Source of the DNA: an uncultured Eggerthella sp.
Lineage (GTDB): Bacteria; Actinomycetota; Coriobacteriia; Coriobacteriales; Eggerthellaceae
Reading direction: 5' to 3'
Assembly (NCBI GenBank): GCA_958409415.1
Contig: CATYMO010000002.1
Location: 17,547 to 81,546 of the forward strand
Length of the DNA: 64,000 bases
The position numbers were made by a program, and so were the translations under genes. Of the stretch, positions 1,877 to 20,436 are shown in pieces. The notes beneath the pieces are model-generated. The model worked only from the letters and a program-made list of their open reading frames with translations. It searched no databases and was not told where the DNA came from. The stretch's first letter is position 1, and every line of letters starts with the position of its first letter.

Positions 1877-3805
1877 ATGGAGATGATAGGATTTCTAATC
1901 CTCTTTCCTCTTGTTGTTGCCGCTCTCTTGCTGATCTTTCGGCAGAACAAGGTAAGAAATGCGATCGTGTGGGTTGCGAGCATCGTCATCATGGGCGCTT
2001 CTATTGCGTTCGTTGCGATGAACATCGGCACACCGGGGCAGTATTTCCTGTTCGAGTCCGTTGTGGTCGATTGGGCATCAATAGCTATCAGCGTGATCGT
2101 CGGCGCAATCGTTATCTTCTACAGCGTCAAGTATCGAAGGTTCTGGGTGCTGGGCCTTGCGGCCATCCAGCTTATCGGCACGCTCATCTTCGAGTTCGGA
2201 TGCGCACACGATATCGTGTGCACCCGCGGTCTCTATGTTGATTCGCTCTCGCTCATCATGACGCTCATCATCGGCCTTGTGGGCGCCGGCATCTGCATCT
2301 ACTCCATTGGCTACATGGAAGACTTCCAGGCTGAACATAAGCATGAAGCGGATCGCCGTCCGCGTTTCTTCGCGCTCATGTTCATCTTCCTTGCAGCGAT
2401 GTATGCGATCATCTTCTGCAACAATCTCATCTGGCTCTATGCTGGTTGGGAGATCACCACAGTTTGTTCCTTCCTCCTCATCGGCTACACCCGCACTGAG
2501 GAAGCGATCGCGAACGCATTCCGCCAGATCGTCATGAACATGGTCGGCGGCATCGCTTTTCTGGCTGCACTCTTCTTCATGGTGCTCGAATTCAACACCG
2601 TCGATTTCCTCGACTTCATCGTTATCGGCACGTTCGCGCCGGCGCTCGTGGTATTCCCGCTCACGTGCTTGAGCCTTGCGGGCATGACCAAAGCAGCGCA
2701 GATGCCGTTTCATACTTGGCTGTTGGGCGCTATGGTCGCGCCGACGCCCACGAGTGCGCTCCTGCATTCATCCACCATGGTGAAGGCGGGCGTATTCATG
2801 CTCATCAAGTGCGCACCCATCTATGCGGTGTCGTTCGGGCCCTCCATCTTCGTCATCTTGGTGGGTGGCCTTACGTTCCTGTTCTGCTCGTTCCTTGCCA
2901 TCTCGCAGGTGAATGCCAAGCGCGTGCTCGCATATTCGACCATCGCGAACCTTGGCCTCATCACGGCTTGCGCGGGCGTTGGTACCGCAGAGGCGATCTG
3001 GGCAGCGATCTTCCTCGTCATCTTCCACGCTATCGCGAAGAGCTTGCTCTTCCTGTGCGTGGGCACCGCAGAGCATCATATCGGCTCTCGTAACATCGAA
3101 GACATGGACACGCTCTTCGAGCGCATGCCGAAGCTCGCACGTCTTATGATGCTCGGTATCATGATCATGTTCATCGCGCCATTCGGTATGCTCATCGCGA
3201 AGTGGGCAACGCTCATTACGCTCATCGGAACGCGTCAGATCGCGCTCATCCTCATGCTGGCGTTCGGCTCAGCAGCTACCTTCATGTTCTGGGCGAAATG
3301 GCTCGGCAAGCTTGCGGGCATCGCAAGCGAGCCCGATAACGTGGAGGTCACCGTGCATAAGAGCGAATGGCTCTCGCTTGCGCTCATGGCGGTGCTCGCC
3401 GTGCTTGCTTGTGCGCTCATCCCGGTCATCTCGAACTTCATGGTCGAGCCTTATGTCAGCTCGATCCTCGGCATGAGCATCCAGCCGATCCGCGACGAGA
3501 ACCTCTATCTGTCCACCATCATCGTCTTGTTCATGGTGATCATGATGTTCGGCGTGCTGCGCAAGAACACGAAGGCGAAGAAGGCCAGCGTGTATCTCTC
3601 CGGCGTCTCGGTCGAGAATGAATCGCGCGTCTATTTGAATGCGCTCTCGAAACCGCAGGAGGCTACTGCGCGCAACTGGTACATGGAGGACTGGTTCGGC
3701 GAGGCGAAGCTCACGCCCGTTGGCACCATCATCTGCTACATTCTCATACTCATTGCATTCATCTGGGCGATCATCGCTACCATCGGATTCACGGCACTGT
3801 TCTAA
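1877..3805 (+). CDS. echA: Energy-converting [NiFe] hydrogenase membrane subunit EchA (NuoL/MnhA-like cation-translocating antiporter-type subunit)
   Basis: 642-aa polytopic membrane protein with NuoL/HyfB-like conserved segments; strong RBS AAAAGGAGGA upstream of the ATG; first gene of a six-gene operon. Confidence 0.8.
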   Translation: MEMIGFLILFPLVVAALLLIFRQNKVRNAIVWVASIVIMGASIAFVAMNIGTPGQYFLFESVVVDWASIAISVIVGAIVIFYSVKYRRFWVLGLAAIQLIGTLIFEFGCAHDIVCTRGLYVDSLSLIMTLIIGLVGAGICIYSIGYMEDFQAEHKHEADRRPRFFALMFIFLAAMYAIIFCNNLIWLYAGWEITTVCSFLLIGYTRTEEAIANAFRQIVMNMVGGIAFLAALFFMVLEFNTVDFLDFIVIGTFAPALVVFPLTCLSLAGMTKAAQMPFHTWLLGAMVAPTPTSALLHSSTMVKAGVFMLIKCAPIYAVSFGPSIFVILVGGLTFLFCSFLAISQVNAKRVLAYSTIANLGLITACAGVGTAEAIWAAIFLVIFHAIAKSLLFLCVGTAEHHIGSRNIEDMDTLFERMPKLARLMMLGIMIMFIAPFGMLIAKWATLITLIGTRQIALILMLAFGSAATFMFWAKWLGKLAGIASEPDNVEVTVHKSEWLSLALMAVLAVLACALIPVISNFMVEPYVSSILGMSIQPIRDENLYLSTIIVLFMVIMMFGVLRKNTKAKKASVYLSGVSVENESRVYLNALSKPQEATARNWYMEDWFGEAKLTPVGTIICYILILIAFIWAIIATIGFTALF

Positions 3806-3820
3806 GAAAGGAGGCACATC

Positions 3821-4702
3821 GTGGAAACGCTTATTTCAATTCTCATCACGCTCGGCGCCTCGGTTGTCTTCGCGATCGTCGGAACGGTGCTCGGTTGCTT
3901 GCTCTCAGGCATCGACCGCATTATCTCAGCTCGCATGCAAGGTCGTGTAGGACCGCCGCTGCTGCAGCCTCTCTATGATGTTCGCAAGCTGTTCGCTAAG
4001 GACAACGTGGCAGTGAACGGCACGATCGGCACCTATGTGGTCTGTGCGCTCATCTTCACGTTCCTTGCTGGCGGCATCTTCTTCTCAGGTGGGAACTTCC
4101 TTCTGTGCGTGTTCGTCATCACGCTTGCAGAGCTCATGTTCGTCATGGCAGCTTACGCATCGCGCTCGCCCTTCTCTGAAGCAGGCGCGCATCGCGAGAA
4201 CCTGCAGATCATGGCGTATGAGCCCATGGTGCTGTTGCTTGCGGTCGGCTTCTTCCAGGCGACGGGCAGCTTTGATATCGCGATCCTGCCGTTCTTAGAT
4301 TCGCCCATCATCTTCAGCCTGTGGGGCGTTTTCTTGGGAATGCTGTTCATTCTTACGATTAAATTGAGGAAATCTCCGTTCGATCTCTCATATTCACATC
4401 ATGCACATCAAGAACTGGTAAAAGGTGTAACTACCGAAATGTCGGGCAAGACCCTCGGTCAGATCGAGATCATGCACTGGTGCGAGAACATCCTCTACAT
4501 GGGTTGGATCGTGATGTTCTTCATCTGGGGCAACCCTGTTTCGATCGTAGTTGCGCTCATCGCGTTCATCCTGATCTACTTGCTTGAGATCTGGATCGAC
4601 AACAACTTCGCTCGTGTGAAATGGCAACTGGTGTTGAAATCGACCTGGATCGTCACGCTCGTTCTCGGTGGTATCAATATCCTTGTTCTTGCATTCCTGT
4701 AA
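3821..4702 (+). CDS. echB: Ech hydrogenase membrane subunit EchB (NuoH/HycD-like)
   Basis: 293-aa integral membrane protein; GTG start preceded by GAAAGGAGG; position and size match echB. Confidence 0.75.
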   Translation: METLISILITLGASVVFAIVGTVLGCLLSGIDRIISARMQGRVGPPLLQPLYDVRKLFAKDNVAVNGTIGTYVVCALIFTFLAGGIFFSGGNFLLCVFVITLAELMFVMAAYASRSPFSEAGAHRENLQIMAYEPMVLLLAVGFFQATGSFDIAILPFLDSPIIFSLWGVFLGMLFILTIKLRKSPFDLSYSHHAHQELVKGVTTEMSGKTLGQIEIMHWCENILYMGWIVMFFIWGNPVSIVVALIAFILIYLLEIWIDNNFARVKWQLVLKSTWIVTLVLGGINILVLAFL

Positions 4703-4711
4703 GGAGGTAAC

Positions 4712-5158
4712 ATGTCTTCTGTTTCAAAATCTCCTTGGATCATACATTACGACGGTTCGAGCTGTAACGGCTGCGATATCGAGGTGCTGGCCGCACTCAC
4801 TCCGCTCTATGATGTCGAGCGTTTTGGCATCATCAATACGGGTAACCCCAAACACGCCGATATCTTCCTGGTTACGGGTGGCGTCAACGAGCGCAATATC
4901 GACGTGGTCAAGGAAATCTACGATCAGATGGTAGAGCCGAAGGTGGTCGTTGCTTGCGGTGTCTGCGCTTGCACGGCGGGCATCTTCAAGGACTGCTACA
5001 ACATCATTGGCGGTGTCGATAAGGCTATCCCCGTTGATGTGTACGCGCCTGGTTGCGCGATCCGCCCTGAAGCCATCATCGATGCGGTGGTCGAAGGGAT
5101 CGGCATCCTTGAGGAAAAGTCGAAGAAGCTCAAAGAAGAGAAGAAGAAAGGGGCGTAA
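4712..5158 (+). CDS. echC: Ech hydrogenase small subunit EchC (NuoB-like, proximal [4Fe-4S])
   Basis: Cys ligand pattern CNGCD … GVCACTAG … PGCAIRP typical of NuoB/hydrogenase small subunits; RBS AAGGAGG. Confidence 0.85.
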   Translation: MSSVSKSPWIIHYDGSSCNGCDIEVLAALTPLYDVERFGIINTGNPKHADIFLVTGGVNERNIDVVKEIYDQMVEPKVVVACGVCACTAGIFKDCYNIIGGVDKAIPVDVYAPGCAIRPEAIIDAVVEGIGILEEKSKKLKEEKKKGA

Positions 5159-5163
5159 GCGTT

Positions 5164-5733
5164 ATGGAATTGAATGAAACGTTTGTCCCTCTTGCGCTCG
5201 AAGACCTGGTCGATACTGCGCGCGAATATAAGGAGCAGGGCTACCAACTGGCTCAGATGATGGGTGTGCTCAAAGAAGACGATACCGTCTGGCTTTACTA
5301 CACCTTCATCAAAGGCAACGAAGTCATCAATCGGCGCATCGAAGGGATCATCAAAGGTGAGACCGAGGTGCCTTCGCTCACGCCGCTCTATATCGCTATC
5401 TTCGTGAACGAAAACGAAGCTCACGATCTTTTTGGTGTGAACATCGTTGGCAATCTTATCGATTTCGAAGGTGCGTTCTACCGCTTCGCTGAAGGCGTTG
5501 AAGCTCCTATGAGCATCGTCTCGCCTGAGCAGCTCGCTGCGCGCGAGAAAGCGGCGAAGATCGCAAAGGCTAAGGCGGCTAAAGCAGCGAAAGCGGCAAA
5601 GGAGAAGGCGGCGAAAGAGGCTGAAGCAGCGAGCGCAGCCAGCGCTCCTACTGAAGAGCAGACCGAAGCCGCCAGCGCTCCCGCACCAGCGCCCGCTGAA
5701 GCTTCGGCGAACACGAACGAGGAAGGGGAGTAA
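5164..5733 (+). CDS. echD: Ech hydrogenase subunit EchD (NuoC-like) with a Lys/Ala/Glu-rich low-complexity C-terminal tail
   Basis: NuoC-like core (~120 aa) followed by AKAKAAKAAKAAKEKAAKEAEAASA…PAPAPAE repeats; operon position. Confidence 0.7.
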   Translation: MELNETFVPLALEDLVDTAREYKEQGYQLAQMMGVLKEDDTVWLYYTFIKGNEVINRRIEGIIKGETEVPSLTPLYIAIFVNENEAHDLFGVNIVGNLIDFEGAFYRFAEGVEAPMSIVSPEQLAAREKAAKIAKAKAAKAAKAAKEKAAKEAEAASAASAPTEEQTEAASAPAPAPAEASANTNEEGE

Positions 5734-5735
5734 CA

Positions 5736-6824
5736 ATGGCAAAAGCACAAGTCATTCCATTCGGGCCCCAGCATCCGGTTCTGCCTGAGCCGGTCCATCT
5801 CGACCTCGTGGTTGAAGACGAAACGGTTGTCGATGTTCTTCCTCAGATCGGATTCATCCATCGTGGTCTCGAAAAGCTCGTCGAGACGCGCGATATCCAT
5901 CAGTACATCTACGTTGCGGAGCGCATCTGCGGCATTTGTGCATTCGGTCATAGCTACGGCTATGCGCAAACGGTCGAGCGTCTTATGAACGTCGAGGTCC
6001 CGCCGCGTGCTGAATACTTGCGTGCGATCATGCATGAGCTTTCGCGTATACACTCCCATCTGCTGTGGATGGGTCTTGCAGCCGATGCGTTTGGTTTCGA
6101 GAGCTTGTTCATGCATTCTTGGCGCTTGCGTGAGCGTATCCTCGACATCTTCGAAGCAGTAGCTGGTGGACGCGTTATCTTGTCCTACACGCTCATCGGT
6201 GGCGTTACGAAGGATATCGATGCGCCCATGCTCCAGGCCATCAAGGATAAGCTCGCGAGTATCAAAGACGAATACAAGCAGATCTGCAATGCTTTCCTGA
6301 AAGACACGTCGGTGAAGAACCGCTTGGTGGGTGTGGGTTATATCGCACCAGAAGATGCGTTTGGCTATGGCATGGTCGGACCCTTCGCCCGTGCGAGCAA
6401 CTTGAACAACGATGTTCGCTGCCTGGGCATCGGCGCCTATGGCGATCTGGCAGAATTCAAGCCGATCCTCTCAACCGATGGCGATTGCTATGCCCGCGTT
6501 CAAGTGCGTGCTGAAGAGGTGCTGCAGTCCATCGACATCATCAACGAACTGATCGATAAGATCCCTGGTGGTGATTTCTACGTGCCCGTGAAGGGTGCGC
6601 CTGCTGCAGGAAGCGAAGCATGCAACATTCTTGAGCAGCCACGTGGCGAAGTGTATTACTACTGCTCTGGCAACGGTACGAAGAATCTCGAGCGCATGCG
6701 CATCCGCACCCCAACTACGCAGAATATCGCTGGCATGACCGTGGCGCTCAAAGGCTGCGACCTCGCCGATGTCAACATGATCGTTCTTACCATCGATCCT
6801 TGCATCAGCTGCACGGAAAGGTAG
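5736..6824 (+). CDS. echE: Ech hydrogenase [NiFe] large subunit EchE (NuoD-like)
   Basis: N-terminal RICGICAFGH (RxCGxCxxxH) and C-terminal DPCISCTER (DPCxxCxxR) Ni-Fe ligand motifs are read directly from the translation. Confidence 0.9.
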   Translation: MAKAQVIPFGPQHPVLPEPVHLDLVVEDETVVDVLPQIGFIHRGLEKLVETRDIHQYIYVAERICGICAFGHSYGYAQTVERLMNVEVPPRAEYLRAIMHELSRIHSHLLWMGLAADAFGFESLFMHSWRLRERILDIFEAVAGGRVILSYTLIGGVTKDIDAPMLQAIKDKLASIKDEYKQICNAFLKDTSVKNRLVGVGYIAPEDAFGYGMVGPFARASNLNNDVRCLGIGAYGDLAEFKPILSTDGDCYARVQVRAEEVLQSIDIINELIDKIPGGDFYVPVKGAPAAGSEACNILEQPRGEVYYYCSGNGTKNLERMRIRTPTTQNIAGMTVALKGCDLADVNMIVLTIDPCISCTER

Positions 6825-6828
6825 AGCA

Positions 6829-7302
6829 ATGGGATATTTCAAACTAGGAAAAATGACGCTCAAGTCGCTCTTCAAGCGCCCTGAGACCATTCGCTACCCG
6901 TATGAGACGAAGCCTCCTGTGGAGGATCTGAAGGGTCACGTAGAGAACGACATCGTCGAATGCACGCTCTGCGGCATCTGCGCCAAGCGTTGCCCAACGG
7001 GCTGCATCACGGTGGATAAAGAGGCGGAATCTTGGACGATCAACCCGTTCGATTGCATCCAGTGCCGCACGTGCGTGCGTGAATGCCCGCAGCACTGTCT
7101 TACCATGATGCCGGAGTATCGCAAGCCCGCCTTCGAGAAGGTCGTTTCGGTCACCACGAAACCTGAGCCTACTGAAGAAGAAAAAGCAGAGCTTGCACGT
7201 AAGGAAGCGGAAAAAGCTGCTAGAATTAAGGCGGCGTTGGAAGCGAAAGCTGCACGTGAAAAAGCCAAGCAGGAACAAGCTGGCCAAACGCCTGAAGCTT
7301 AG
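6829..7302 (+). CDS. echF: Ech hydrogenase 2x[4Fe-4S] ferredoxin-like subunit EchF (NuoI-like) with a Lys/Ala/Glu-rich C-terminal tail
   Basis: Two CxxCxxCxxxCP clusters (CTLCGICAKRCP, CIQCRTCVRECP); C-terminal KPEPTEEEKAELARKEAEKAARIKAALEAKAAREKAKQEQ tail. Confidence 0.85.
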   Translation: MGYFKLGKMTLKSLFKRPETIRYPYETKPPVEDLKGHVENDIVECTLCGICAKRCPTGCITVDKEAESWTINPFDCIQCRTCVRECPQHCLTMMPEYRKPAFEKVVSVTTKPEPTEEEKAELARKEAEKAARIKAALEAKAAREKAKQEQAGQTPEA

Positions 7303-7329: not shown

Positions 7330-7358
7330 CGGGCCTTTTAGAGGCCCGTTTCCTTTTT
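7330..7358 (+). terminator. Rho-independent terminator after the ech operon
   Basis: GC stem CGGGCC / GGCCCG with loop TTTTAGA, followed by a T-rich tract. Confidence 0.6.
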
Positions 7359-7375
7359 GAAGAGGGAGAGAGCGC

Positions 7376-8035: not shown

Positions 8036-10604
8036 GAAGCGCGATGCGCAAGGCGCGGCTTCTTCGCCTGCTCGACGTGATCAAGACAGATCCAGTATGC
8101 GCTCTTCACGCACCTCACGCGCTACCTCATCCTCTCGCGAGGAGTCTGTAAGCCAAAGCGGGCGTGCGACACGAGGCGGGCGCAGCGCTTCGGAGGGGCG
8201 TCCTTCACGCACCAGCGGAAACGCGAGCTCTTCGCGCAGCTCGCGCTCGCAAGAATCGAGCGTTCGCTCACGCAGAGATGCTCAGCGCGGATCGCAAGCG
8301 CGCACGAGCGCCCGTCCGTCTCGCAGAGAACCTGAGATCGATCCTGCGCAAGAGAGTCGCGATGCTGCGCGGCAGCGGCTGCAGGCACGCACGGCTGCAA
8401 CGCAGCAAGAGCGCTCGACTCTTTCAGACGGTGCTCAGCGTTCATCTGCGCGTTCTGCTCGTGCCGATACGCTCATGCGCACGGCCAGGCGTACTGCGGT
8501 GTCAAAAGATGAACCTCAAACAGAAGACACTTCGCCCTCAACGAATGCGCGTGCGCGCAGGGGAACTGCACAGTCTGCGCGCCGATCACGCGCAGAAGGC
8601 AAGCGTCGTTCGCAGGCAGACCAGACGAACAATATGCTGGGGGGCGAACAGGGGATTCCTCATAATGTACTGAAGAATCCCATGAAGCCAGCTGGAGGAA
8701 AGGGTTCGGGCTCTTCAGGAGGAGCGGGCGTGTTCGCGCGATTGGTGGGCGGATGCGCCTGGCTGTGGTCGAAGAGCAAGGCGCTTTCGGTCGCGCTCGT
8801 GGTGGTTGTGGCGATCGTGGTTGCGGGAGGTGTCGATTCGCTCGCTACGATGAATCACATCTACCAGGGCGTGAGCGTGGGAAACATCGATCTTTCTGGA
8901 AAGACGCCCGAAGAAGCAACCACGCTCATCTCGCAGGAATACGAACCACGCTTCAACAGCAATGCGGTGGTCTTCTGTGCTAACGAACAAGCCGCGCAGC
9001 GCTCCGAGGAAGAGCAGCAACGCAACGAATCGCTTGAAGAGCAGATATCCTACGAAGAATCGCTCTCTTCGCGTGATCGCTGGACGGTGAACGCGCCTCT
9101 TATCGGGGCGACGTTCGACCCGGCCGCCTACGCCAAAGCCGCCTATGAAGTCGGACGGAGCGATGGTGGGTTCTTCGCACGCTTGGCGGCTCAATTCTCA
9201 GGACACGATATCAAGCCGGTTTGCACGTTCAACGAGACTTCGCTCGAAGCCCTTCGCGACGAGATCATCGATGCGCTCGGAAGCAAGATGGTCAACTTCA
9301 ACATCGAGATGAAGGATGCGCATGCGCAAGTGACCGACGGTCACGATGGCTATGAGGTGTCCGAAGAGTGGCTCGTCGATCGGCTGAATCAGGCGCTTCT
9401 TGAAGCGGAGGGCGAATCGCGCTTCATCATCGATATGCATGATGTCGCCATCCAGATCGATCACGATAAGGCGCAGGCGTGCGCGGATGAGATCAATGCC
9501 TCGATCCCTTGCGGGGTCAATTTCACCTATGAGGACAAGAGCTATTTTGCGGATAAGAACGTACTTGCCGAATGGATCAAGACCGAGGTGAAGCAGGAGG
9601 GGGATGCCTTCACGCTCGTGCCGCTCTTCGATGGGGCGAAAGCTAACCAGAAGATCATCCAAGGGTTCGGGTTCAGCTACGGTGGGTCAGATTATCTCGT
9701 GCACTTCACGAACGAAGGTGGCAACATCACCGTAAGTACCAATGCAACTGGCTCAGTGCCGCAGGTCTCTGAAGCGATCGCGCACCTGAACGAAACGTTC
9801 TTCTCGCCCAACGAGAAAACGACCGCGGCAGAGGTTCAGGTCGTTTCCGCGCAGATTCCTGAATCGATGAGCTTCGAAGAGGCGCTCGATTACGGACTCA
9901 TCACCGAAATATCCTCCTATACCACGCGCTATGCGTCAGGCGCAGAAGCGCGCAATAACAACATCCATGTGGCAGCCGATGCGCTCAACAATTCGATCTG
10001 CAAAGCAGGTGAGACCTGGTCATTCCTGGCGCTCGCGGGTGAGGCAACGCCAGAGAAGGGTTACCAAGGCGCAGGTGCAATCATCGGCGGCGAGTATTCC
10101 GATGCGATCGGTGGTGGTATCTGCCAGGTGGCCACTACGGTGTTCAATGCAGTCTATGAAGCAGGCTACCCGATCGAGCGGCGCAACAATCATTCGCTCT
10201 ATATTGCAAGTTACCCCGAAGGACGCGATGCAGCCATCGCATACCCTGATATCGATCTGGTGTGGCGAAATGATACGGAATCCGATGTGCTGCTGCGCAT
10301 GAGCTACACCAATTCATCGGTCAGCGCCACGCTCTACGGTGTTGACCCAGGATATGAGGTAACGACCGTTTATGGCGAGTGGGAAGAAGGCGAGCCCTAT
10401 CGCACGGTGGTGCGCAAAGACCCCGATTATCCTATCGGCACGGAGTTCATTGAGTCCTCTGGCGCTAATGGGCGCTCGATTACGATTGTCCGCACGGTCA
10501 AAGACCGTAATGGCAATATAATTCAAGAGAAAGAATTCCATTCGAATTATCAACCGAAGAACGAAGTTAAAGTTCAGGGTTCAGCCGAACCTTCGAGCGA
10601 GTGA
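8028..10604 (+). CDS. VanW-family plus G5-domain cell-envelope protein with a ~230-aa Arg/Ser-rich disordered N-terminal region and a single TM helix
   Basis: C-terminal VanW signature (GGGICQVATTVFNAVYEAGYP…) and a G5-like tail. ATG at 8028 overlaps the pgsA stop (ATGGCTAG). The upstream in-frame extension to 7959 was rejected. Confidence 0.75.
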   Translation: MARKRDAQGAASSPARRDQDRSSMRSSRTSRATSSSREESVSQSGRATRGGRSASEGRPSRTSGNASSSRSSRSQESSVRSRRDAQRGSQARTSARPSRREPEIDPAQESRDAARQRLQARTAATQQERSTLSDGAQRSSARSARADTLMRTARRTAVSKDEPQTEDTSPSTNARARRGTAQSARRSRAEGKRRSQADQTNNMLGGEQGIPHNVLKNPMKPAGGKGSGSSGGAGVFARLVGGCAWLWSKSKALSVALVVVVAIVVAGGVDSLATMNHIYQGVSVGNIDLSGKTPEEATTLISQEYEPRFNSNAVVFCANEQAAQRSEEEQQRNESLEEQISYEESLSSRDRWTVNAPLIGATFDPAAYAKAAYEVGRSDGGFFARLAAQFSGHDIKPVCTFNETSLEALRDEIIDALGSKMVNFNIEMKDAHAQVTDGHDGYEVSEEWLVDRLNQALLEAEGESRFIIDMHDVAIQIDHDKAQACADEINASIPCGVNFTYEDKSYFADKNVLAEWIKTEVKQEGDAFTLVPLFDGAKANQKIIQGFGFSYGGSDYLVHFTNEGGNITVSTNATGSVPQVSEAIAHLNETFFSPNEKTTAAEVQVVSAQIPESMSFEEALDYGLITEISSYTTRYASGAEARNNNIHVAADALNNSICKAGETWSFLALAGEATPEKGYQGAGAIIGGEYSDAIGGGICQVATTVFNAVYEAGYPIERRNNHSLYIASYPEGRDAAIAYPDIDLVWRNDTESDVLLRMSYTNSSVSATLYGVDPGYEVTTVYGEWEEGEPYRTVVRKDPDYPIGTEFIESSGANGRSITIVRTVKDRNGNIIQEKEFHSNYQPKNEVKVQGSAEPSSE

Positions 10605-10606
10605 GA

Positions 10607-11929
10607 ATGAAAGGAGCGGTTGTGTACTACCAGCCCGAACTAGAAACGATGCCACGTGAGGAGCTCGACGCACTTCAGCTTGAGCGTCTCCAGAAGTTGG
10701 TCGCTTATGTCTATGAGCGCATTCCCTTCTATCGCGAGTCGTTCGATGAGGCAGGCGTTAAACCTGAAGACATCACCTCGCTCGATGATCTGCGCAAATT
10801 CCCGTTCACGGTGAAGCAGGACTTGCGCGACGCCTATCCGTTCGGCATGTTCGCGGTGCCGCAAAGCGAGGTCGCTCGCATTCACTGCTCTTCGGGCACA
10901 ACAGGCACGGCAACCGTGGTTGGTTACACTGAAAAAGACCTTGAAGTGTGGGGCGATTGCTTTGCCCGCTTCCTCTATGCAGCAGATTGTGGCCCCGATG
11001 CCGTGCTGCAAGTTGCCTATGGCTATGGTTTGTTCACGGGTGGTCTTGGCGCTCACCAGGGCGGCGAACGTGGTGGTCTTACCGTGCTTCCCATGTCCAC
11101 TGGCAATACGAAACGCCAGGTGCGTCTCATGAAAGACTTCGGTGTCGACGTGCTCGCCTGCACGCCTTCTTATGCGCTCAACATCGCTGATGTGGCGATC
11201 GAAGAGGGCTACAAGCCGGCAGAAGAATTCAAGATCCATGCAGGCATCCTTGGTGCAGAGCCCTGCTCTGAGGGCATGCGCTCAGAGATCCAAGACAAGC
11301 TCGGTATCCAGGTCTACGATATCTATGGTCTTTCCGAGGTCATGGGCCCTGGTGTGGCTTGCGAGTGTGAAGCGCAGAATGGTCTGCATGTATGCGAGGA
11401 TCATTTCATCATCGAGATCGTCGATCCGCAGACGCTCGAGCCCGTGCCTGATGGGCAATGGGGCGAAGTGGTCATGACCACGCTCTCCAAGGAATGCTCG
11501 CCGCTCATTCGCTATCGTACGCGCGACATCTCTCGCATCATCACTGGTCAGTGCGAATGCGGGCGTACCTTCCGTCGCATGGATCGCATCACGGGACGTA
11601 CTGATGACATGATGATCCTTCGTGGTGTGAACGTCTTCCCGTCGCAGATCGAGGAAGAGATCGTCTCGTTCCCCGAGATCGTTTCTCAATACCAGCTCAT
11701 CCTTACCACGCGCGGTGCGCTTGACCATGTGGAACTGCAGGTCGAGACCGTGCCTGATTTCCCCTTCGACGAAGTGGCTCGCTTGCAGAAGCTCAAGAAG
11801 GACCTCGAAAAGGCGCTCAAGGAGAATCTGCAGATCGCAGTCGAGGTGAAGATCGTTGAACCGAAGACCATCGAGCGCTCCGAAGGCAAAGCAAAACGTA
11901 TCATCGACCTGAGGGAAGGACTGAAATAA
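10607..11929 (+). CDS. paaK: Phenylacetate--CoA ligase family (aryl-acetate/aryl-acid CoA ligase, PaaK-like)
   Basis: Near-collinear with E. coli PaaK: PELETMPREEL…SSGTTG…YGYGLFTGGLGAH…DIYGLSEVMGPGVA…RYRTRD…RGVNVFPSQ. Confidence 0.85.
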   Translation: MKGAVVYYQPELETMPREELDALQLERLQKLVAYVYERIPFYRESFDEAGVKPEDITSLDDLRKFPFTVKQDLRDAYPFGMFAVPQSEVARIHCSSGTTGTATVVGYTEKDLEVWGDCFARFLYAADCGPDAVLQVAYGYGLFTGGLGAHQGGERGGLTVLPMSTGNTKRQVRLMKDFGVDVLACTPSYALNIADVAIEEGYKPAEEFKIHAGILGAEPCSEGMRSEIQDKLGIQVYDIYGLSEVMGPGVACECEAQNGLHVCEDHFIIEIVDPQTLEPVPDGQWGEVVMTTLSKECSPLIRYRTRDISRIITGQCECGRTFRRMDRITGRTDDMMILRGVNVFPSQIEEEIVSFPEIVSQYQLILTTRGALDHVELQVETVPDFPFDEVARLQKLKKDLEKALKENLQIAVEVKIVEPKTIERSEGKAKRIIDLREGLK

Positions 11930-12351
11930 TGATCTCTCAATTAACGGTATTCCTTGAAAACCGCGAAGGCCGTTTGGCCTCCGCTATCCGCACGATCGCT
12001 GAAGCCGGCATCAACATGCAGGCGATGTTCTTGGCGGACACGAAGGATTTTGGCATCTTGCGCATCTTCTGCGACACGCCTGAGAAAGCGTGCCGCATCT
12101 TGCGTGAGGCAGATTATCAAGCGAAGTTGATCGATGTCGTTGCGGTCAAGGTACCCAACGTTCCTGGATCGCTTTCGAAGCTCTTCGATTATCTCGATGA
12201 TAAAGATATCAACGTCGAATACGCGCACTGCTTCATGGTAGGCGATCATGCGATCGATATCTTGAAGGTGGCCGATCCGGCGCTCGACGTGAAGCTTGCT
12301 GCAGAAGGATTCGAAGTCTGCAAGCCTGAGGATGTGTATGCGCTCGACTAG
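11929..12351 (+). CDS. ACT-domain protein (tandem ACT, ~140 aa), paired with paaK
   Basis: Two ACT-like beta-alpha-beta-beta-alpha-beta units; start overlaps the paaK stop (ATGA), consistent with translational coupling. Confidence 0.7.
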   Translation: MISQLTVFLENREGRLASAIRTIAEAGINMQAMFLADTKDFGILRIFCDTPEKACRILREADYQAKLIDVVAVKVPNVPGSLSKLFDYLDDKDINVEYAHCFMVGDHAIDILKVADPALDVKLAAEGFEVCKPEDVYALD

Positions 12352-13771
12352 GTCGCATATCCTTGATAGAACACGGACCAAATACGCAGGCATCTTTGCT
12401 TGCGTATTTGCGTTTGTCCTGAGCGTCGCGCTTTGTCCGTGCATCGCCCAGGCTGAAGTGCGCAATTCCGATGTGGTGCTCGGTCAGACCATCGAGGAGC
12501 AAGGCTTCACCGCTGCTCAAGCACCGAACATCGTCGCCGAATACGCCTATCTCGTTTCCAGCGATGGTACGATCTACTTTGCGCGTAACGCGTATGATCA
12601 AGTTCACATCGCATCCATCACGAAGATCATGACTGCGCTCGTTGCGCTCGACTATGGGGGAGACCCTACGCAGACCGAGATCACGGTCAGTCAAGAGGCA
12701 GCGAGCATCGGTGAATCCACTGCGGGGCTAAGAGCAGGCGATGTGCTCACGCTCGAAGCTGCGATCAAGGCGCTCATGATTCCTTCCGGCAACGATGCAG
12801 GTCAAGCCTTGGCTGAATCGCTCGGGCCGAAGATCTTGGAAGAACTGCAAAAGGATAAGAGCATTCCTGAAGATGAGATGCCTCAGAATGGCTACGATGC
12901 ATTCGTCTATGCGATGAACAAGAAGGCGCTCGCTCTCGGTATGAACGATGCGCATTTCAGCAACCCGCATGGTCTTGATTACGATCAGTTCAGCGGGGAT
13001 ATGCATTGCAGTGCTCAGAACGTTTCCATCATGGCTCGTGCTGCCATGGAAAACGAGCTTTTCCGTTCGGTCGTAGCAACGCCGAAGACCACGATCTCGG
13101 TAAAGCGTGGAGAGGGTTGGGTCGACCTTCAGCTCGAGTCGACCGATCTTCTGATCGGCGTCTATGAAGGCGCTTGCGGTATCAAGACCGGTTTCACCGA
13201 AGAAGCGGGCGAGTGCTTCGCGGGTGCTTGCGAGCGCGATGGGGAGACCCTCTACGCGATCGTGCTTCATTCGAGCACGGAAGCGCAGCGCTTCACCGAC
13301 TGCACGACCATGTGGAACTGGGTCTATGACAACACGATCGATGTTCCGCTGGCTTCTTCGGACGAAGTGATCACGCTTCAGCTCAATGGTCAAGAAGTCC
13401 AAGCGCCCGTCGTGGCGAATGTGAGCCATAAAGGCTGGCTCGATAAGACCTTCAAAGCAACGATCGCAAACCCGACTGAGACGGTCGAGGTCTTCCGCTA
13501 TAACGGAAATGTGAGCCAAGAAGTGGTTTTCGACGACATTACCAACACCGTGCATGCGGGAGACAAGGTGGGTACGGTAAACTATTACCAGAATAACGAG
13601 ATCATCAAAACGGTCGACCTTATTGCCGCAGAAGACTGCGCCGGTCCGAACTTCCTTGAAGGTATCGGCATCTGGTGGAGCAGGCTTACGGGCGGCGATC
13701 AAGCAAAGGAAGCTGAGAGCGAAGTGGTCAGCTCGATGCCGATCATCTACGGTGCCGATGCCACGCGCTAA
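12338..13771 (+). CDS. dacB: D-alanyl-D-alanine carboxypeptidase (S11 serine peptidase / low-MW PBP family) with signal peptide
   Basis: SxxK (ASITK), SGN (PSGND) and KTG-like motifs; N-terminal hydrophobic signal. ATG at 12338 chosen over the upstream ORF start, which overlaps the ACT gene. Confidence 0.75.
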   Translation: MRSTRSHILDRTRTKYAGIFACVFAFVLSVALCPCIAQAEVRNSDVVLGQTIEEQGFTAAQAPNIVAEYAYLVSSDGTIYFARNAYDQVHIASITKIMTALVALDYGGDPTQTEITVSQEAASIGESTAGLRAGDVLTLEAAIKALMIPSGNDAGQALAESLGPKILEELQKDKSIPEDEMPQNGYDAFVYAMNKKALALGMNDAHFSNPHGLDYDQFSGDMHCSAQNVSIMARAAMENELFRSVVATPKTTISVKRGEGWVDLQLESTDLLIGVYEGACGIKTGFTEEAGECFAGACERDGETLYAIVLHSSTEAQRFTDCTTMWNWVYDNTIDVPLASSDEVITLQLNGQEVQAPVVANVSHKGWLDKTFKATIANPTETVEVFRYNGNVSQEVVFDDITNTVHAGDKVGTVNYYQNNEIIKTVDLIAAEDCAGPNFLEGIGIWWSRLTGGDQAKEAESEVVSSMPIIYGADATR

Positions 13772-13798
13772 GCGTATAGAGGGGTAAGAGGGAAGCAT

Positions 13799-14233
13799 AT
13801 GACAACCTGTCCAGTGTGCATGAATGAAGCGAATAACGATGGAGACTGCTGTTCGGTGTGCGGCTACCATTTCCAAGATGCCACCGAAGCATTCGAGGCG
13901 ATATCCATCGATACCGAAGGTGAGCGTGCTCATGCTACCGATCAGGCACCTGCATCGCTTCGCGTGTGCTATGGCAAGCAGGAAGGTCTGGTGTTTCCGC
14001 TCGAGAGCGATTTCATCGAGATCGGCCGTTCTCCGCAATGTGGCGTGATGCTCAACGATATGACCGTTTCGCGCGTTCACGCTGAAATGGAGAAGATCAA
14101 CGGCGAATGGACCATCACGGACCGCGATTCGTTCAATGGCGTGTGGGTGAATAACGAAGCGATCAAGAATGCTGTGTTGAACCCAGGCGATCTTCTGCAG
14201 ATCGGCTGCTTCGTTCTTCGTTTCGTTGAATAA
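13799..14233 (+). CDS. Zinc-ribbon plus FHA-domain protein
   Basis: N-terminal CPVC…CSVCGYHF zinc ribbon; C-terminal FHA core (GRSPQCGVMLND…SRVHAEM…NGVWVN). Confidence 0.7.
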   Translation: MTTCPVCMNEANNDGDCCSVCGYHFQDATEAFEAISIDTEGERAHATDQAPASLRVCYGKQEGLVFPLESDFIEIGRSPQCGVMLNDMTVSRVHAEMEKINGEWTITDRDSFNGVWVNNEAIKNAVLNPGDLLQIGCFVLRFVE

Positions 14234-14290
14234 TCGCCCCTTCAAGATCTCGTCTTTTGAATCTTTTGAAAATACGAACAAGGATTACGT

Positions 14291-16018
14291 ATGGAATTTT
14301 TATCAGGTAATGAAGCGATCGCGCGTGGTGCGTGGGAAGCAGGGTGTCATATTGGCACTGCCTATCCAGGAACACCTTCTACCGAGACCATGGAAACCTT
14401 CGCAACGCTTCCTGGGGTCTACGCGGAATGGTGTCCGAACGAAAAGGTCGCGCTCGAGGTTGCGATGGGTGCTTCTGCAGCGGGTGCACGTGTGCTCGTT
14501 ACGATGAAGCACGTGGGCGTGAATGTGTGTGCCGATCCGCTTTTCACTGCCTCGTATACCGGCGTTAACGGTGGGGTGCTTTTGCTCGCCGCCGACGATC
14601 CGGGCATGTTCTCTTCGCAGAACGAGCAAGACAGTCGCTATTATGCCATGGCTTCTCTTGTACCCATTCTTGAGCCTGCCGATTCTCAGGAAGCGCTCGA
14701 TTTCGCACGCAGCGCCTACGATCTTTCCGAGCAGTTCGATGTTCCCTTCATGATGCGCTCTACCGTACGCATCTCGCACACGAAAACCCCTGTTGAAGTG
14801 GGGGAGCGCACCGAGGTTGAGAAGAAGCCTTACGAGAGCGACCCTACCAAATGGGTCATGATGCCCGCCTTCGCGAAGCCGCGCCGTAAGGTCGTGGTCA
14901 AGCGCACGGAAACGCTGAAGGAATGGGTGGAAACGTGCCCGTTCAATCGCGTGGAGAAGGGCGATACGAGCATCGGCATCATTTGCGCTGGTGCGGTCTA
15001 TGAGCATGTTAAGGAAGCTCTGGGTGACGTGAGCATCTTCAAGCTGGGTGTGACCTGGCCGCTGCCCGCAGACGCGCTCGCGCGATTTGCTGAGAGCGTG
15101 GATAAGGTGTACGTGGTCGAAGAGGCTTCGACCTATCTTTCGGATGCAGTACGTTCATGCGGTATCGCGCTCGATGAATTCGTTAACCCCTTGCCTGCCG
15201 ATGGCGAGGTTCATCCTGAAGATGTCCTGCGGGCGTTCGGAAAAGAAACTCCTGCGCACCTCGATACTCCTGGCGATGTTCCTAACCGTCCGCCTGCTCT
15301 TTGTGCGGGCTGCCCTCATCGTATCGTCTTTCGTGAGCTCGCACGCAACAAAGCCATCGTCACGGGTGATATCGGCTGCTATACGCTCGGCGCACTGCCG
15401 CCGCTCTCAGCCATGGATACTACGCTCGACATGGGCGCCTCTGTTTCGATGGCGCACGGCTTCGAGCTCGCAATGGCGGGAAGCGACCATCGTCCGATCG
15501 TGGGTGTGATCGGCGATTCCACGTTCGCGCATTCTGGCCTTTCGAGCCTCATCAACACGGTCTATAACAAGGGTGCTGGCACGATCTGCATCCTCGATAA
15601 TCGCACGACCGCCATGACCGGCCAGCAGGGCAATCCGTTCAATGGGGTGACGCTGCAAAACCGCGAGAGCAACGAGCTCGATCTACCCGTTGTCCTCGAT
15701 GCTATCGGCGTCGATCACGTGCAGGTGGTCGATGCGTTCGATCGTGATGCGGTACGGGGTGCGCTCAAAGAAGCGCTCGGCCGCGACGAACTTGACGTGA
15801 TCGTGTTCCGCGGTCCTTGCGTGCTGCTTTCTAAAACGAAGGATACGCCCTACTGCGTGAACGGGAACTGCACGGGCTGTGGTGTGTGTGTGACGCTGGG
15901 ATGCCCCGCAATTTCAACCGATCGCGAAACGGGCTTTTCGTCGATCGATACCGATATGTGCAATGGATGCTCGCAGTGCGCTCAGTACTGCGCGTTCGAT
16001 GCGATCGAGCGTCTGTAG
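14291..16018 (+). CDS. iorA: Indolepyruvate:ferredoxin oxidoreductase alpha subunit
   Basis: Characteristic N-terminus MEFLSGNEAIARGAWEAGCHIGTAYPGTPSTE; TPP motif GDIGCYTLG; C-terminal 2x[4Fe-4S] (CTGCGVCV…CPAI, CNGCSQCAQYC). Confidence 0.9.
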   Translation: MEFLSGNEAIARGAWEAGCHIGTAYPGTPSTETMETFATLPGVYAEWCPNEKVALEVAMGASAAGARVLVTMKHVGVNVCADPLFTASYTGVNGGVLLLAADDPGMFSSQNEQDSRYYAMASLVPILEPADSQEALDFARSAYDLSEQFDVPFMMRSTVRISHTKTPVEVGERTEVEKKPYESDPTKWVMMPAFAKPRRKVVVKRTETLKEWVETCPFNRVEKGDTSIGIICAGAVYEHVKEALGDVSIFKLGVTWPLPADALARFAESVDKVYVVEEASTYLSDAVRSCGIALDEFVNPLPADGEVHPEDVLRAFGKETPAHLDTPGDVPNRPPALCAGCPHRIVFRELARNKAIVTGDIGCYTLGALPPLSAMDTTLDMGASVSMAHGFELAMAGSDHRPIVGVIGDSTFAHSGLSSLINTVYNKGAGTICILDNRTTAMTGQQGNPFNGVTLQNRESNELDLPVVLDAIGVDHVQVVDAFDRDAVRGALKEALGRDELDVIVFRGPCVLLSKTKDTPYCVNGNCTGCGVCVTLGCPAISTDRETGFSSIDTDMCNGCSQCAQYCAFDAIERL

Positions 16019-16031
16019 AGGGGAGCGCGAT

Positions 16032-16616
16032 ATGAGCGATAAGACATTCACTATTTTGCTTTGCGGCGTTGGTGGTCAGGGGACGATCACTGCGGCCACG
16101 TTGCTCGCGCGTGTTGCGAGCGCGGCAGGGAAGTGCTGCAAGGTTTCTGAGATCCATGGTATGGCACAGCGTGGTGGCGCGGTCACCACGGTCGTACGTT
16201 TTGGCGATAACGTTTCTACGATGGTCTGTGACGAAGGCTGCGCTGATAACATCGTGTCGTTCGAGACCACCGAAGCGCTCCGCAACCTTGCTTATCTGAA
16301 GGAAGGCGGCGTGCTCGTCGTGAACGATGAGGAGATCAAGCCGCTTCCTGTGCTCACGGGCAAGGCCGAGATGCCCGCTCGTGCGCGTGAGCGTCTCGAT
16401 GAGCTGGGAGCAACGCTCATTCCTGCGAGCGAGCTCGCTCGCAGTGCAGGAACGGCGAAATGCGCAAATGTCGTGCTTCTTGGTGCGCTCGCAGTGAGCC
16501 TTCCATTCGAGTTTTCCCTTTGGGAAGAGGTCATTCGTAACAATGTCCCGCCCAAGACCATCGATATCAACCTCGAGGCATTCCATCTGGGTGCCAACTA
16601 TATGCAAGGAGAGTAG
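16032..16616 (+). CDS. iorB: Indolepyruvate:ferredoxin oxidoreductase beta subunit
   Basis: LLCGVGGQGTITAA pyruvate/2-oxoacid:Fd oxidoreductase gamma-type fold; ATG 14 nt after the iorA stop. Confidence 0.85.
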   Translation: MSDKTFTILLCGVGGQGTITAATLLARVASAAGKCCKVSEIHGMAQRGGAVTTVVRFGDNVSTMVCDEGCADNIVSFETTEALRNLAYLKEGGVLVVNDEEIKPLPVLTGKAEMPARARERLDELGATLIPASELARSAGTAKCANVVLLGALAVSLPFEFSLWEEVIRNNVPPKTIDINLEAFHLGANYMQGE

Positions 16617-16618
16617 CC

Positions 16619-17032
16619 ATGGCTGTTGCCCAGTTAAGTGTTTTCATCGAGAGCAAGGTCGGTCACCTGAAGCGCGTGCTCGAAGTGTTCGTGGAGAACG
16701 ATATCAGCGTGAAAGGCTATGCGTTAAGCGATACGGGTGATTATGGCATCGCGCGATTCGTGGTCGACAAGCCGCAGCGCGCTTTTGAAGTGCTCGAGGC
16801 GAAGGGTATGGCGGTCAAGCAGGCTGACGTGCTCTGCTTGAAGCTCATCGATGAACCAGGTGAGCTCGTGCGCGTGTTCGACGTGATCGCCCAGCAAGAT
16901 ATGAACGTGAAGTATTCTTACTCGCTCATCTCGACCTATATCGCAGTCGGCGTCGAAGACGTTGCGCGCGCGGAAGCTGCATTGGCCGAACAACCGGTCG
17001 AGCTCGTTTCGCAGGTTGATTTCTCGGCGTAA
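16619..17032 (+). CDS. ACT-domain protein (second copy), paired with the second paaK
   Basis: Paralogue of 11929-12351 (MxxxQLSVFxE…GI/GV…); starts 3 nt after iorB. Confidence 0.7.
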   Translation: MAVAQLSVFIESKVGHLKRVLEVFVENDISVKGYALSDTGDYGIARFVVDKPQRAFEVLEAKGMAVKQADVLCLKLIDEPGELVRVFDVIAQQDMNVKYSYSLISTYIAVGVEDVARAEAALAEQPVELVSQVDFSA

Positions 17033-17109
17033 TGCGCTTAGTGCTCGTGCGCTACTAGTAGTCGTTATCTCCTTCCATCCCTTCTATTCAGTATCAGAAT
17101 CGAGAACCT

Positions 17110-18429
17110 ATGAGTAATTCAGTGATCACCCCGATGTTCCAACCCGAGATCGAAACCATGTCGCGTGAAGAGATCCGCGCGCTGCAGCTTGCAAAGCTCA
17201 AGGATCAGGTTGCGTGGACCTATGAGCGCGTGCCATGGTATCGCGAGAAGATGGGGGAACTGGGAGTGGTGCCGGGCGATATTCAAACGCTCGAAGACAT
17301 TCGCAAGCTTCCCTTCACGGACAAGTCAGTGCTGCGTGACACCTATCCGTTCGGTCTTTTCGCCATTCCGATCGATGATGTGGTGCGCCTGCATGCTTCG
17401 TCGGGCACCACGGGAAAGCCGATCGTGGTGGGGTACAACGATCACGATCTGGACATTTGGCGCGATTGCATCGCCCGCTTGGCTCAGATGGCAGGCGTGG
17501 TACCTTCGGACCGCGTTCAGATGGCATTTGGCTATGGTATGTTCACCGGTGGCTTCGGACTGCACTATGGTCTTGAGCATCTGGGTTGCATGGTCATTCC
17601 GGCAGGGTCGGGCAATACCGAACGTCATCTCATGATGATCAACGACTACCAGACCACCGTGCTCATCGCCACACCTTCCTATGCGATGCACATGTGCGAA
17701 TATGGCGAGAAGCATGGTTTCGATTGGGAGAACTCGAGCTTGCGCATCGGGCTCTTCGGTGGCGAACCTTGTCCGCCGCCGCTCAAAGAAGAGATCGAGC
17801 GCCGCATGCACATCATCTGCACCGATAATTACGGCCTCACCGAAGTGATGGGTCCGGGCGTTTCAGGTGAATGCCTTGCGTGTCGCGACATGCAGCATAT
17901 CGCGGAGGATCATTTCTTCTGGGAGATCGTCGATCCAAAGACCGGCGAGCCGCTGCCTGAGGGCGTGCCGGGCGAGCTGGTGCTCACGCCGCTCGACAAG
18001 CAGGCGTTCCCGGTGCTGCGTTACCGCACGCACGATCTGAGCTATGTGATCACTGAGCCGTGCGCATGCGGACGCACTCATGCGCGCATGAAGAAGGTAC
18101 GTACCCGCACCGACGATATGCTCATCATCCGCGGAACGAATGTGTTCCCTTCGCAGGTGGAGGACATCCTGGCTGGCATCGAAGGCGTGAGTCCGCACTA
18201 TCGCATCGAAGTCGATAACGATAACGGACTCGATCATATGGTCATCATGGTCGAGCTGCTGCCAGAAGCGTTCAGCGATTCCTTCGAAGAGATGGATCGC
18301 TTCCGCAAGCAGATCCAGACCAAGCTCAAGGACACGATGCTCGTCTCCTCCGATGTGAAGCTCATCGAGCCAGGCGGGATCGAGCGCAGTTTCGGCAAGA
18401 CGAAACATGTTACCGATCGCAGAAACTAA
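17110..18429 (+). CDS. paaK: Phenylacetate--CoA ligase family paralogue (PaaK-like)
   Basis: Same motif set as 10607-11929 (SSGTTGKP, YGYGMFTGGFGLHYG, YGLTEVMGPGVS, RYRTHD). Confidence 0.85.
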   Translation: MSNSVITPMFQPEIETMSREEIRALQLAKLKDQVAWTYERVPWYREKMGELGVVPGDIQTLEDIRKLPFTDKSVLRDTYPFGLFAIPIDDVVRLHASSGTTGKPIVVGYNDHDLDIWRDCIARLAQMAGVVPSDRVQMAFGYGMFTGGFGLHYGLEHLGCMVIPAGSGNTERHLMMINDYQTTVLIATPSYAMHMCEYGEKHGFDWENSSLRIGLFGGEPCPPPLKEEIERRMHIICTDNYGLTEVMGPGVSGECLACRDMQHIAEDHFFWEIVDPKTGEPLPEGVPGELVLTPLDKQAFPVLRYRTHDLSYVITEPCACGRTHARMKKVRTRTDDMLIIRGTNVFPSQVEDILAGIEGVSPHYRIEVDNDNGLDHMVIMVELLPEAFSDSFEEMDRFRKQIQTKLKDTMLVSSDVKLIEPGGIERSFGKTKHVTDRRN

Positions 18430-18433
18430 TGAG

Positions 18434-19384: not shown

Positions 19385-19391
19385 ATAATGC

Positions 19392-20387: not shown

Positions 20388-20436
20388 TTATATAAGTTAG
20401 TATTAAGTGCGAGATCAAAAGATGGGGAGTGTAGCA

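Follow-up and report, generated by a model that had tools for sequence, protein, structure and literature searches.

Here we describe a block of eight genes in a 64,000-nucleotide stretch of DNA from an uncultured Eggerthella sp. (contig CATYMO010000002.1 of assembly GCA_958409415.1; the whole stretch is referred to as the window). In this block two PaaK-family aryl-acetate-CoA ligases, each next to a stand-alone tandem-ACT protein of the ACT_8 family, bracket a single indolepyruvate:ferredoxin oxidoreductase (IOR). The two ligases fall into two deep clades with distinct residue signatures, and the ACT proteins show the same split. We propose, with moderate confidence, that the two ligase lanes activate aryl-acetates of the gut, that the IOR reductively carboxylates the activated acids to aromatic 2-oxoacids for amino-acid salvage, and that the ACT proteins exert lane-specific feedback.

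An eight-gene block conserved in Eggerthellaceae

Gene identities and positions were obtained from the listing of open reading frames (ORFs) and from hidden Markov model scans with Pfam and NCBIfam/TIGR, which confirmed that the eight genes named in a preliminary description of this DNA are real, correctly identified and correctly placed. All are encoded on the forward strand. The block opens with the gene for PaaK1 (10622..11929), an A-type AMP-forming aryl-acetate-CoA ligase of 435 aa when read from a GTG at 10622, five bases 3′ of the Shine-Dalgarno site AAGGAG; an alternative ATG lies at 10607. Its end overlaps the start of the gene for its partner ACT1 (11929..12351) by one nucleotide (TAATG), and dacB (12338..13771) starts at an ATG 14 nt before ACT1 ends. 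The gene for an FHA protein (13799..14233) is followed by iorA (14291..16018) and iorB (16032..16616), encoding the alpha and beta subunits of the IOR, and the iorB ATG at 16032 is preceded by the Shine-Dalgarno site GAGGGGAG. ACT2 (16619..17032) starts 2 nt past iorB, and downstream of it lies the gene for PaaK2 (17110..18429), a B-type PaaK-family ligase. The 3′ end of the latter (18407-18429) overlaps the start of GluQRS, which encodes a tRNA glutamyl-Q(34) synthetase, by 23 nt, and this adjacency is kept throughout the family (L012-L057, around 10400-10550). Close gene packing extends from a strong terminator at 7330-7348 to GluQRS; this upstream terminator was the only strong signal in a promoter and terminator scan, which gave no convincing signals inside the block in this organism.

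Annotation of 86 loci by tblastn revealed the full block in ∼30 Eggerthellaceae species at 45-80% protein identity, with the conserved order (VanW)-PaaK1-ACT1-DacB-FHA-IorA-IorB-ACT2-PaaK2-GluQRS. The hosts include Gordonibacter, Paraeggerthella, Ellagibacter, Adlercreutzia, Slackia, Senegalimassilia and Cryptobacterium, and the complete genome of Eggerthella sp. YY7918 also carries the block. Because the gene order is identical in so many species at this level of divergence, the arrangement is not due to chance. In a public assembly collection, 8727 indexed blocks contain the exact ACT2 protein, and the synteny was identical in the six long contigs that we inspected.

The preliminary description had also stressed the palindromic architecture of the block. 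As an independent feature this is not supported, since all eight genes are co-directional and the symmetry is one of gene order only. Moreover, PaaK precedes ACT in some phyla and follows it in others, and the dacB-FHA pair stands beside the ior genes anyway. Direct or inverted DNA repeats between the two halves of the block, which a real palindrome or a duplication of recent date would be expected to show, were searched for and not found. Lineages differ in the order of ACT and ligase genes and in the side taken by each lane, and the mirror order in Eggerthellaceae is incidental.

The two ligases belong to different clades

PaaK1 and PaaK2 are 45% identical to each other, and both consist of AMP-binding and AMP-binding_C_2 domains. 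They reach 559.5 and 517.4 bits, respectively, with TIGR02155, both under its equivalog cutoff of 646.3, and by these models they are members of the PaaK family, not certified equivalogs. Solved phenylacetate-CoA ligases match both proteins with E = 1e-118 to 1e-139 (PaaK1 versus 2Y27, E = 6e-139), and the catalytic motifs (SSGTTG P-loop, RYRTRD, DDM..RG.N.FP and the A10 Lys) are intact in both. The P-loop of PaaK1 (∼10892-10918) reads SSGTTGTAT, and all Eggerthellaceae PaaK1 orthologues (loci L012-L057) have SSGTTG(T/Q)AT where SSGTTGKPT is usual, with loss of the Lys-Pro. Since this variant is conserved, PaaK1 is presumably functional, and its handling of ATP may be altered. An N-terminal extension of PaaK2 (…VKGAALAAAAAGxFxxLPIHN…) is apparent in many other genera, and PaaK2 of this organism is without it.

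To compare the putative substrate motifs, six positions (136, 141, 147, 214, 236 and 245), which we take to line the aryl pocket, were read after alignment to BcPaaK1 of Burkholderia cenocepacia (PDB 2Y27), where they are Y136, F141, A147, A214, I236 and P245. On this presumed list PaaK1 (Y-F-A-A-I-P) agrees with BcPaaK1 at all six positions, and PaaK2 (F-F-L-G-N-P) shares two of the six and differs at the other four (F136/L147/G214/N236). Both six-residue signatures are essentially invariant within their orthologue sets, that of PaaK2 in ∼45 orthologues. BcPaaK1 itself accepts phenylacetate and its 3-OH and 4-OH derivatives (PMC3417372). With 45% identity and with motif positions that differ between the copies while each is fixed among its orthologues, the ligases are not near-identical recent duplicates, an origin that would have spoken against the two specificities proposed in the preliminary description. 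By sequence divergence, they are old paralogues.

A neighbour-joining tree of IOR- or ACT-linked PaaKs separates two deep clades, A and B. Clade A comprises BcPaaK1 and BcPaaK2, the Bacteroides ligase 4R1L, Eggerthellaceae PaaK1, the ACT-linked Clostridial ligase, and ligases of Bacteroidales and Methanobrevibacter. Clade B comprises Eggerthellaceae PaaK2, ligases of other Coriobacteriia and of betaproteobacterial metagenome-assembled genomes (MAGs) from termite guts, and the Clostridial ligase encoded upstream of iorA. Clade A carries Tyr136/Ala214/Ile236, as does BcPaaK1, and clade B carries Phe136/Gly214/Asn236. When position 236 was used to label the clades, 5 of 423 alignment columns separated them cleanly (134, 136, 214, 298 and the labelling position 236 itself), and three of these five (136, 214 and 236) lie in the six-residue list.

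ACT_8 proteins have diversified together with the ligases

ACT1 and ACT2 match Pfam ACT_8 (PF19571) with 83.5 and 84.2 bits, respectively, at a cutoff of 23.5. They are only 32% identical to each other and, judged by this divergence, are old paralogues as well. Both match PDB entry 2F06 (BT0572; E = 7e-22 for ACT1 and 3e-15 for ACT2), and weak matches were seen to the ACT domains of the acetohydroxyacid synthase small subunit and of prephenate dehydrogenase. Conserved throughout the family are Q5, F9, G15, D38-T39, G43, R46 and P80-G81, in addition to a few clade-specific residues. At E ≤ 1e-10, a search with the ACT_8 profile matched 3564 cluster representatives. Of the 150 with the best scores, almost all are stand-alone proteins of ∼140 aa, and the longer proteins among these 150 are methyltransferase, EAL or duplicated-ACT chimeras.

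In the retrieved loci with adequate flanks, 85 of 92 ACT genes have a direct PaaK neighbour and 42 an IorB neighbour. The ACT tree shows the same A/B split as the PaaK tree. Each member of the ACT2 clade adjoins a B-type PaaK and/or directly follows IorB. In the other clade, which contains ACT1 and proteins from Clostridia, Bacteroidales (including 2F06), a Thermodesulfobacteriota MAG and Methanobrevibacter, all members with a PaaK neighbour adjoin an A-type ligase. Since the ACT tree reproduces the ligase tree, this indicates that ACT proteins and PaaKs have co-diversified as specific pairs. The literature that we searched contained no report tying ACT-domain proteins to PaaK or IOR.

ACT2-PaaK2 pairs are also present in termite-gut 'Azoarcus'/Betaproteobacteria MAGs (L010, L017, L020, L023, L032, L045 and L051), where ACT2 is 50-62% and PaaK2 70-72% identical to the Eggerthellaceae proteins. 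In both trees they are nested inside the Coriobacteriia clade, and they lie in unrelated contexts with no IOR nearby, which suggests cross-phylum transfer or mis-binned contigs. Auxin-degradation (iaa) genes, sought beside these termite-gut pairs in order to name the substrate of the PaaK2 lane, were not found, the neighbours being unrelated.

Two ligase types around one IOR in other lineages

IorA contains POR_N (13-179), TPP_enzyme_C (360-504) and Fer4 (551-573) domains, a fused alpha-subunit architecture that is typical of IORs (PMC13285125, section 2.7), and IorB is a PF01558 protein (127 bits). With 631.3 bits against TIGR03336 (cutoff 650.9) and 210.8 bits against NF005325 (cutoff 230), IorA and IorB both remain just under the respective cutoffs. 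The next-best family for IorA reaches 117 bits, and the KOR, POR and VOR models score at most 70. Based on this distance and on the fused POR_N, TPP_C and Fer4 domains of the alpha subunit, IorAB groups with IOR and not with KOR or POR, in agreement with the assignment in the preliminary description. No link between Eggerthella and IOR was found in the literature searched.

Several Oscillospiraceae and other Clostridia have the order PaaK(B)-IorA-IorB-PaaK(A)-ACT, and others have IorAB-PaaK(A)-ACT. In Clostridia the A-type PaaK-ACT pair comes immediately after IorB, and cell-wall genes are absent from its vicinity (L064, L066, L069-L072, L078, L081 and L084), and in a Methanobrevibacter locus (L086) PaaK(A)-ACT stands beside divergent IorBA. 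Because Clostridia, too, place A- and B-type ligases around one IOR, two ligase lanes sharing one IOR seem, from these comparisons, to be a repeated solution. The idea of two specificity lanes served by one IOR, already raised in the preliminary description, is thus strengthened by the two deep PaaK clades, the matching ACT tree and the A-plus-B pair in Clostridia.

In a distant Coriobacteriia MAG (L056:10489-16556), IorAB-ACT and the B-type PaaK are separated by the genes of a Liv-type ABC importer. These encode a Peripla_BP_6 binding protein, a pair of permeases and at least one ATPase that was confirmed, followed by a second ORF of 256 aa. This placement hints at uptake coupled to CoA activation.

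A possible aryl-acetate salvage route

From these comparisons we infer substrates, a direction, the ligand of the ACT proteins and a contact between ACT protein and enzyme. Lane A, formed by PaaK1 and ACT1, is predicted to use phenylacetate and possibly hydroxyphenylacetate, because the motif residues of PaaK1 are those of BcPaaK1. For lane B, formed by ACT2 and PaaK2, another aryl-acetate is predicted, most likely indole-3-acetate or 4-hydroxyphenylacetate. Each ligase would convert an imported gut aryl-acetate to its CoA thioester with cleavage of ATP to AMP and pyrophosphate (PPi). The single IorAB would then form phenyl-, hydroxyphenyl- or indole-pyruvate from the thioester, CO2 and reduced ferredoxin, which a neighbouring Ech hydrogenase perhaps supplies, and transamination of the aryl-pyruvates would yield phenylalanine, tyrosine or tryptophan. 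ACT1 and ACT2 would act as amino-acid sensors that bind their own ligase (ACT2 possibly also the IOR) and close the lane once enough of its end product is present. An analogy for such a role is acetohydroxyacid synthase, which is under feedback control by an ACT small subunit.

The preliminary description had assumed that the IOR makes aryl-acetyl-CoA, but the AMP-forming ligases argue for the reverse, anabolic direction. The ligases of the block are all AMP-forming members of the PaaK family, and neither Pta/Ack nor an ADP-forming ligase is encoded in it, unlike in fermentative IOR/VOR clusters, which sit by Pta and Ack or by ADP-forming ligases (PMC13285125). Moreover, the Bacteroides IOR co-localises with an AMP-forming aryl-acetate-CoA ligase that has been assayed, and a biosynthetic role as in methanogens has been suggested for it (PMC13285125). 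A salvage route would also be useful, since Eggerthella lenta, of the same family, is a conserved tryptophan auxotroph (PMC10234575).

Several observations weigh against this salvage reading. The oxidative direction operates in related systems, as E. lenta secretes indole-3-acetate in tryptophan-containing defined medium (PMC10234575) and the IOR of Bacteroides thetaiotaomicron, according to a report cited in PMC13285125, contributes to the production of phenylacetate from phenylalanine. The annotated parts of the window yielded no aminotransferase, and an Rfam scan of 6500-20500 at a permissive threshold gave no credible T-box, riboswitch or leader that would mark a biosynthetic operon. The longer proteins among the best 150 of the 3564 ACT_8 matches include no ACT-PaaK fusion. 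With regard to lane B, the PaaK tree does not contain a characterised indoleacetate ligase, and the role of the six positions in lining the aryl pocket is our assumption. In addition, the Ech hydrogenase and a CDP-alcohol phosphatidyltransferase gene upstream of the block are syntenic family-wide, too. Since this conserved synteny spans at least 17 kb and includes unrelated genes, adjacency alone is weak evidence for a common function.

The most serious alternative is that the block runs in the oxidative direction, as a fermentative or overflow route. Amino acids would be transaminated, the IOR would oxidise aryl-pyruvates to aryl-acetyl-CoA with reduction of ferredoxin, and Ech would vent H2. 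Phenylacetate, indole-3-acetate and hydroxyphenylacetate would be released by a thioesterase or by the PaaKs in reverse (AMP + PPi to ATP), and the ACT proteins would open the lanes in response to an abundance of amino acids. We regard this as possible, though on the whole we doubt it. The products seen in E. lenta and B. thetaiotaomicron speak for it, Ech can serve as an H2-evolving sink for reduced ferredoxin, and a 4HBT-family thioesterase is encoded 2 kb downstream (20407-20874). However, this thioesterase, with a UbiA-family prenyltransferase as its neighbour, is more readily assigned to menaquinone synthesis, and the Pta and Ack or ADP-forming ligases of fermentative clusters are missing from the block. 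For an AMP-forming ligase the reverse reaction is unfavourable on thermodynamic grounds except at sustained high PPi levels, and two ATP-consuming ligases with sensors of their own are hard to rationalise for plain excretion. In our reading the aryl-pyruvate/aryl-acetate node would be reversible, and the block may well work in both directions depending on the amino-acid supply.

Alternatively, the eight genes might not be one unit, with IorAB-ACT2-PaaK2 as the true operon and PaaK1-ACT1 as an unrelated pair that is held in rigid synteny or that serves the envelope genes VanW and DacB, to which its translation is coupled. In line with this, the PaaK1-ACT1 pair overlaps dacB and directly follows VanW, and some lineages (L034, L039, L040 and L043) keep VanW-DacB-FHA-IorAB-ACT2-PaaK2 without it. 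Furthermore, terminator or promoter signals lie between FHA and iorA in Slackia, Gordonibacter and Paraeggerthella, and family-wide synteny covers everything from Ech to GluQRS. We nevertheless consider such a split very unlikely: the loci of Clostridia and Methanobrevibacter described above tie the A-type pair to IOR independently of a cell-wall neighbourhood, and PaaK1 has the motif residues of a genuine phenylacetate ligase. An entry into anaerobic aromatic degradation, in which phenylacetyl-CoA is converted to benzoyl-CoA and the ring is then reduced as in denitrifiers, appears far-fetched. PaaK-family ligases do open this pathway in Thauera and Aromatoleum (review, PMC8388817), but the annotated parts of the window and the related loci contain no pad, box, bcr/bam or paaABCDE (ring-epoxidase) genes, and both ligase clades go with IOR and ACT rather than with genes for ring attack.

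Extending the salvage reading, AMP-forming aryl-acetate-CoA ligases and, via ACT2, perhaps also the IOR could have lane-specific allosteric subunits in the ACT_8 proteins, which would then form a class not described before. Eggerthellaceae would thereby possess a route under feedback control from microbially produced indole-3-acetate and phenylacetate back to tryptophan and phenylalanine. The FHA protein might bring in a further layer, regulation of a 2-oxoacid:ferredoxin oxidoreductase by Ser/Thr kinases, much as OdhI acts on 2-oxoglutarate dehydrogenase. In this full form the proposal is speculative, and we rate it as rather unlikely.

dacB and FHA probably lie in an inherited neighbourhood

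The product of dacB is a DacB-like S11 D-Ala-D-Ala carboxypeptidase (Peptidase_S11, 126.5 bits; PBP5_C, 28.8 bits), and a basic segment followed by a hydrophobic one at the N-terminus of its translation marks a signal anchor. The FHA protein (FHA, 61.6 bits) is GarA/OdhI-like and has an N-terminal zinc ribbon (CPVC...CxxCG) as well as a conserved T(Q/E)xF motif. Its score with the NCBIfam OdhI model (NF041660) is 72.7 bits, below the cutoff of 200, and its Thr29 aligns with profile position 14, the phosphorylation site of OdhI. Judged by these features it resembles a GarA/OdhI-type phospho-switch at best and falls short of the equivalog.

An insertion of dacB and FHA into a symmetric module was considered and rejected, as cell-wall and FHA genes adjoin ior even where PaaK1-ACT1 is absent. 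In such lineages dacB sits right after VanW. In distant Coriobacteriia, FHA is followed by a MerR gene (L056:1317-2482 and L060:3398-4628), other genes, an NlpC/P60 hydrolase gene and iorA; this FHA-MerR order resembles that of garA in Mycobacterium, which is likewise paired with a MerR gene. In Slackia a strong terminator lies 3′ of FHA, and in Gordonibacter and Paraeggerthella a promoter-like TTTGCCGTA(C/T)AAT box is found upstream of iorA. Taken together, dacB and FHA are probably an inherited cell-wall and division neighbourhood and not members of the pathway.

The 5′ coding region of dacB contains a perfect 14-bp stem with a 4-nt loop at 12379-12410 (CAAATACGCAGGCA TCTT TGCTTGCGTATTTG), ∼40 nt past the dacB start and 28 nt past the ACT1 stop codon. 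It may affect translation or mRNA stability, or may be due to chance.

Genomic surroundings and significance

Upstream of the block, a complete six-subunit Ech-type energy-converting [NiFe] hydrogenase is encoded on the forward strand at 1877..7302 (Pfam Proton_antipo_M, NADHdh, Oxidored_q6, Complex1_30kDa, Complex1_49kDa/NiFeSe and Fer4). The order Ech-CDP-alcohol phosphatidyltransferase-(VanW)-PaaK1 is kept across Eggerthellaceae, and Ech could supply or dispose of the ferredoxin of the IOR, or the order could be plain synteny. The 881-aa VanW/PG_binding_4/G5 protein encoded directly upstream (7959-10604) is present in only some Eggerthellaceae loci; where it is missing, the CDP-alcohol phosphatidyltransferase leads straight to PaaK1. 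The position of the VanW start differs widely among gene calls. A stretch of low GC content (43-50% versus ∼55% elsewhere) at 22785-28065 carries a tandem duplication of a shikimate-dehydrogenase-like gene (copies 71% identical) and a GFO/IDH/MocA oxidoreductase gene (85%), with a LysR regulator gene between the copies. This stretch was probably acquired, as a catabolic cassette of the quinate/shikimate type or for polyphenols.

Among the major metabolites of the gut, phenylacetate and indole-3-acetate act on the host and are linked to phenylacetylglutamine and cardiovascular risk and to aryl-hydrocarbon receptor signalling, and Eggerthellaceae are prevalent and disease-linked. If aryl-acetates are consumed for amino acids, these bacteria would be sinks as well as sources of such compounds, and their amino-acid needs would hinge on cross-feeding. 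If ACT_8 proteins are allosteric subunits of such a salvage route, the tryptophan auxotrophy of the family would be conditional in the gut. Several thousand ACT_8 proteins are uncharacterised, and the pairing with ligases offers a specific hypothesis for their function; Tyr136/Ala214/Ile236 versus Phe136/Gly214/Asn236 is a simple marker that divides IOR-linked PaaKs into two lanes across phyla.

Comparison with known systems

Clusters of IOR and PaaK as well as anabolic IORs are already known, and the block is a variation on this known system. What appears undescribed is the near-obligate, co-diversified pairing of ACT_8 proteins with ligases, the split into lanes A and B with its residue signature, and the presence of the block throughout Eggerthellaceae. 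Among ACT_8 proteins, 2F06 (BT0572), an ACT-pair protein from structural genomics, belongs to the same family as ACT1 and ACT2 and sits in the ACT clade linked to A-type ligases; no function is assigned to the entry, which may contain a bound amino acid. The FHA protein shares its small size and an N-terminal Thr motif (TxxF) with GarA and OdhI, regulators of actinobacterial 2-oxoglutarate metabolism, and differs from them by the extra zinc ribbon and by its neighbours dacB and iorA.

In methanogens, energy-converting hydrogenases (Ehb in M. maripaludis) supply reduced ferredoxin. For the IOR of Methanobacterium and Methanococcus, operation in reverse for amino-acid synthesis has been proposed (PMC13285125); in contrast, the Eggerthellaceae block has an actinobacterial host and two lanes. 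The iorAB-paaK cluster of Bacteroides (B. thetaiotaomicron; ligase structures 4R1L/4RVN) likewise combines a two-subunit IOR with an AMP-forming ligase of the PaaK family (PMC13285125), and the PaaKs of the window match 4R1L with E = 1e-118 to 1e-125. The Bacteroides ligase shows a third motif pattern (S136/F147/A214/S236), whereas the Eggerthellaceae block has two ligases of two deep clades, each with an ACT_8 protein, and a cell-wall/FHA pair between them.

PaaK1 and PaaK2 of B. cenocepacia (2Y27, 2Y4N and 2Y4O) are of the same family and fold as the PaaKs of the window (E = 1e-125 to 1e-139), and these paralogues differ in pocket size and in their range of hydroxy-phenylacetates (PMC3417372). 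The two Burkholderia copies are 69% identical, both belong to clade A and feed the aerobic paaABCDE ring-epoxidase pathway. In contrast, the PaaKs of the window are 45% identical, belong to different clades, score under the TIGR02155 cutoff and are linked to IOR and ACT.

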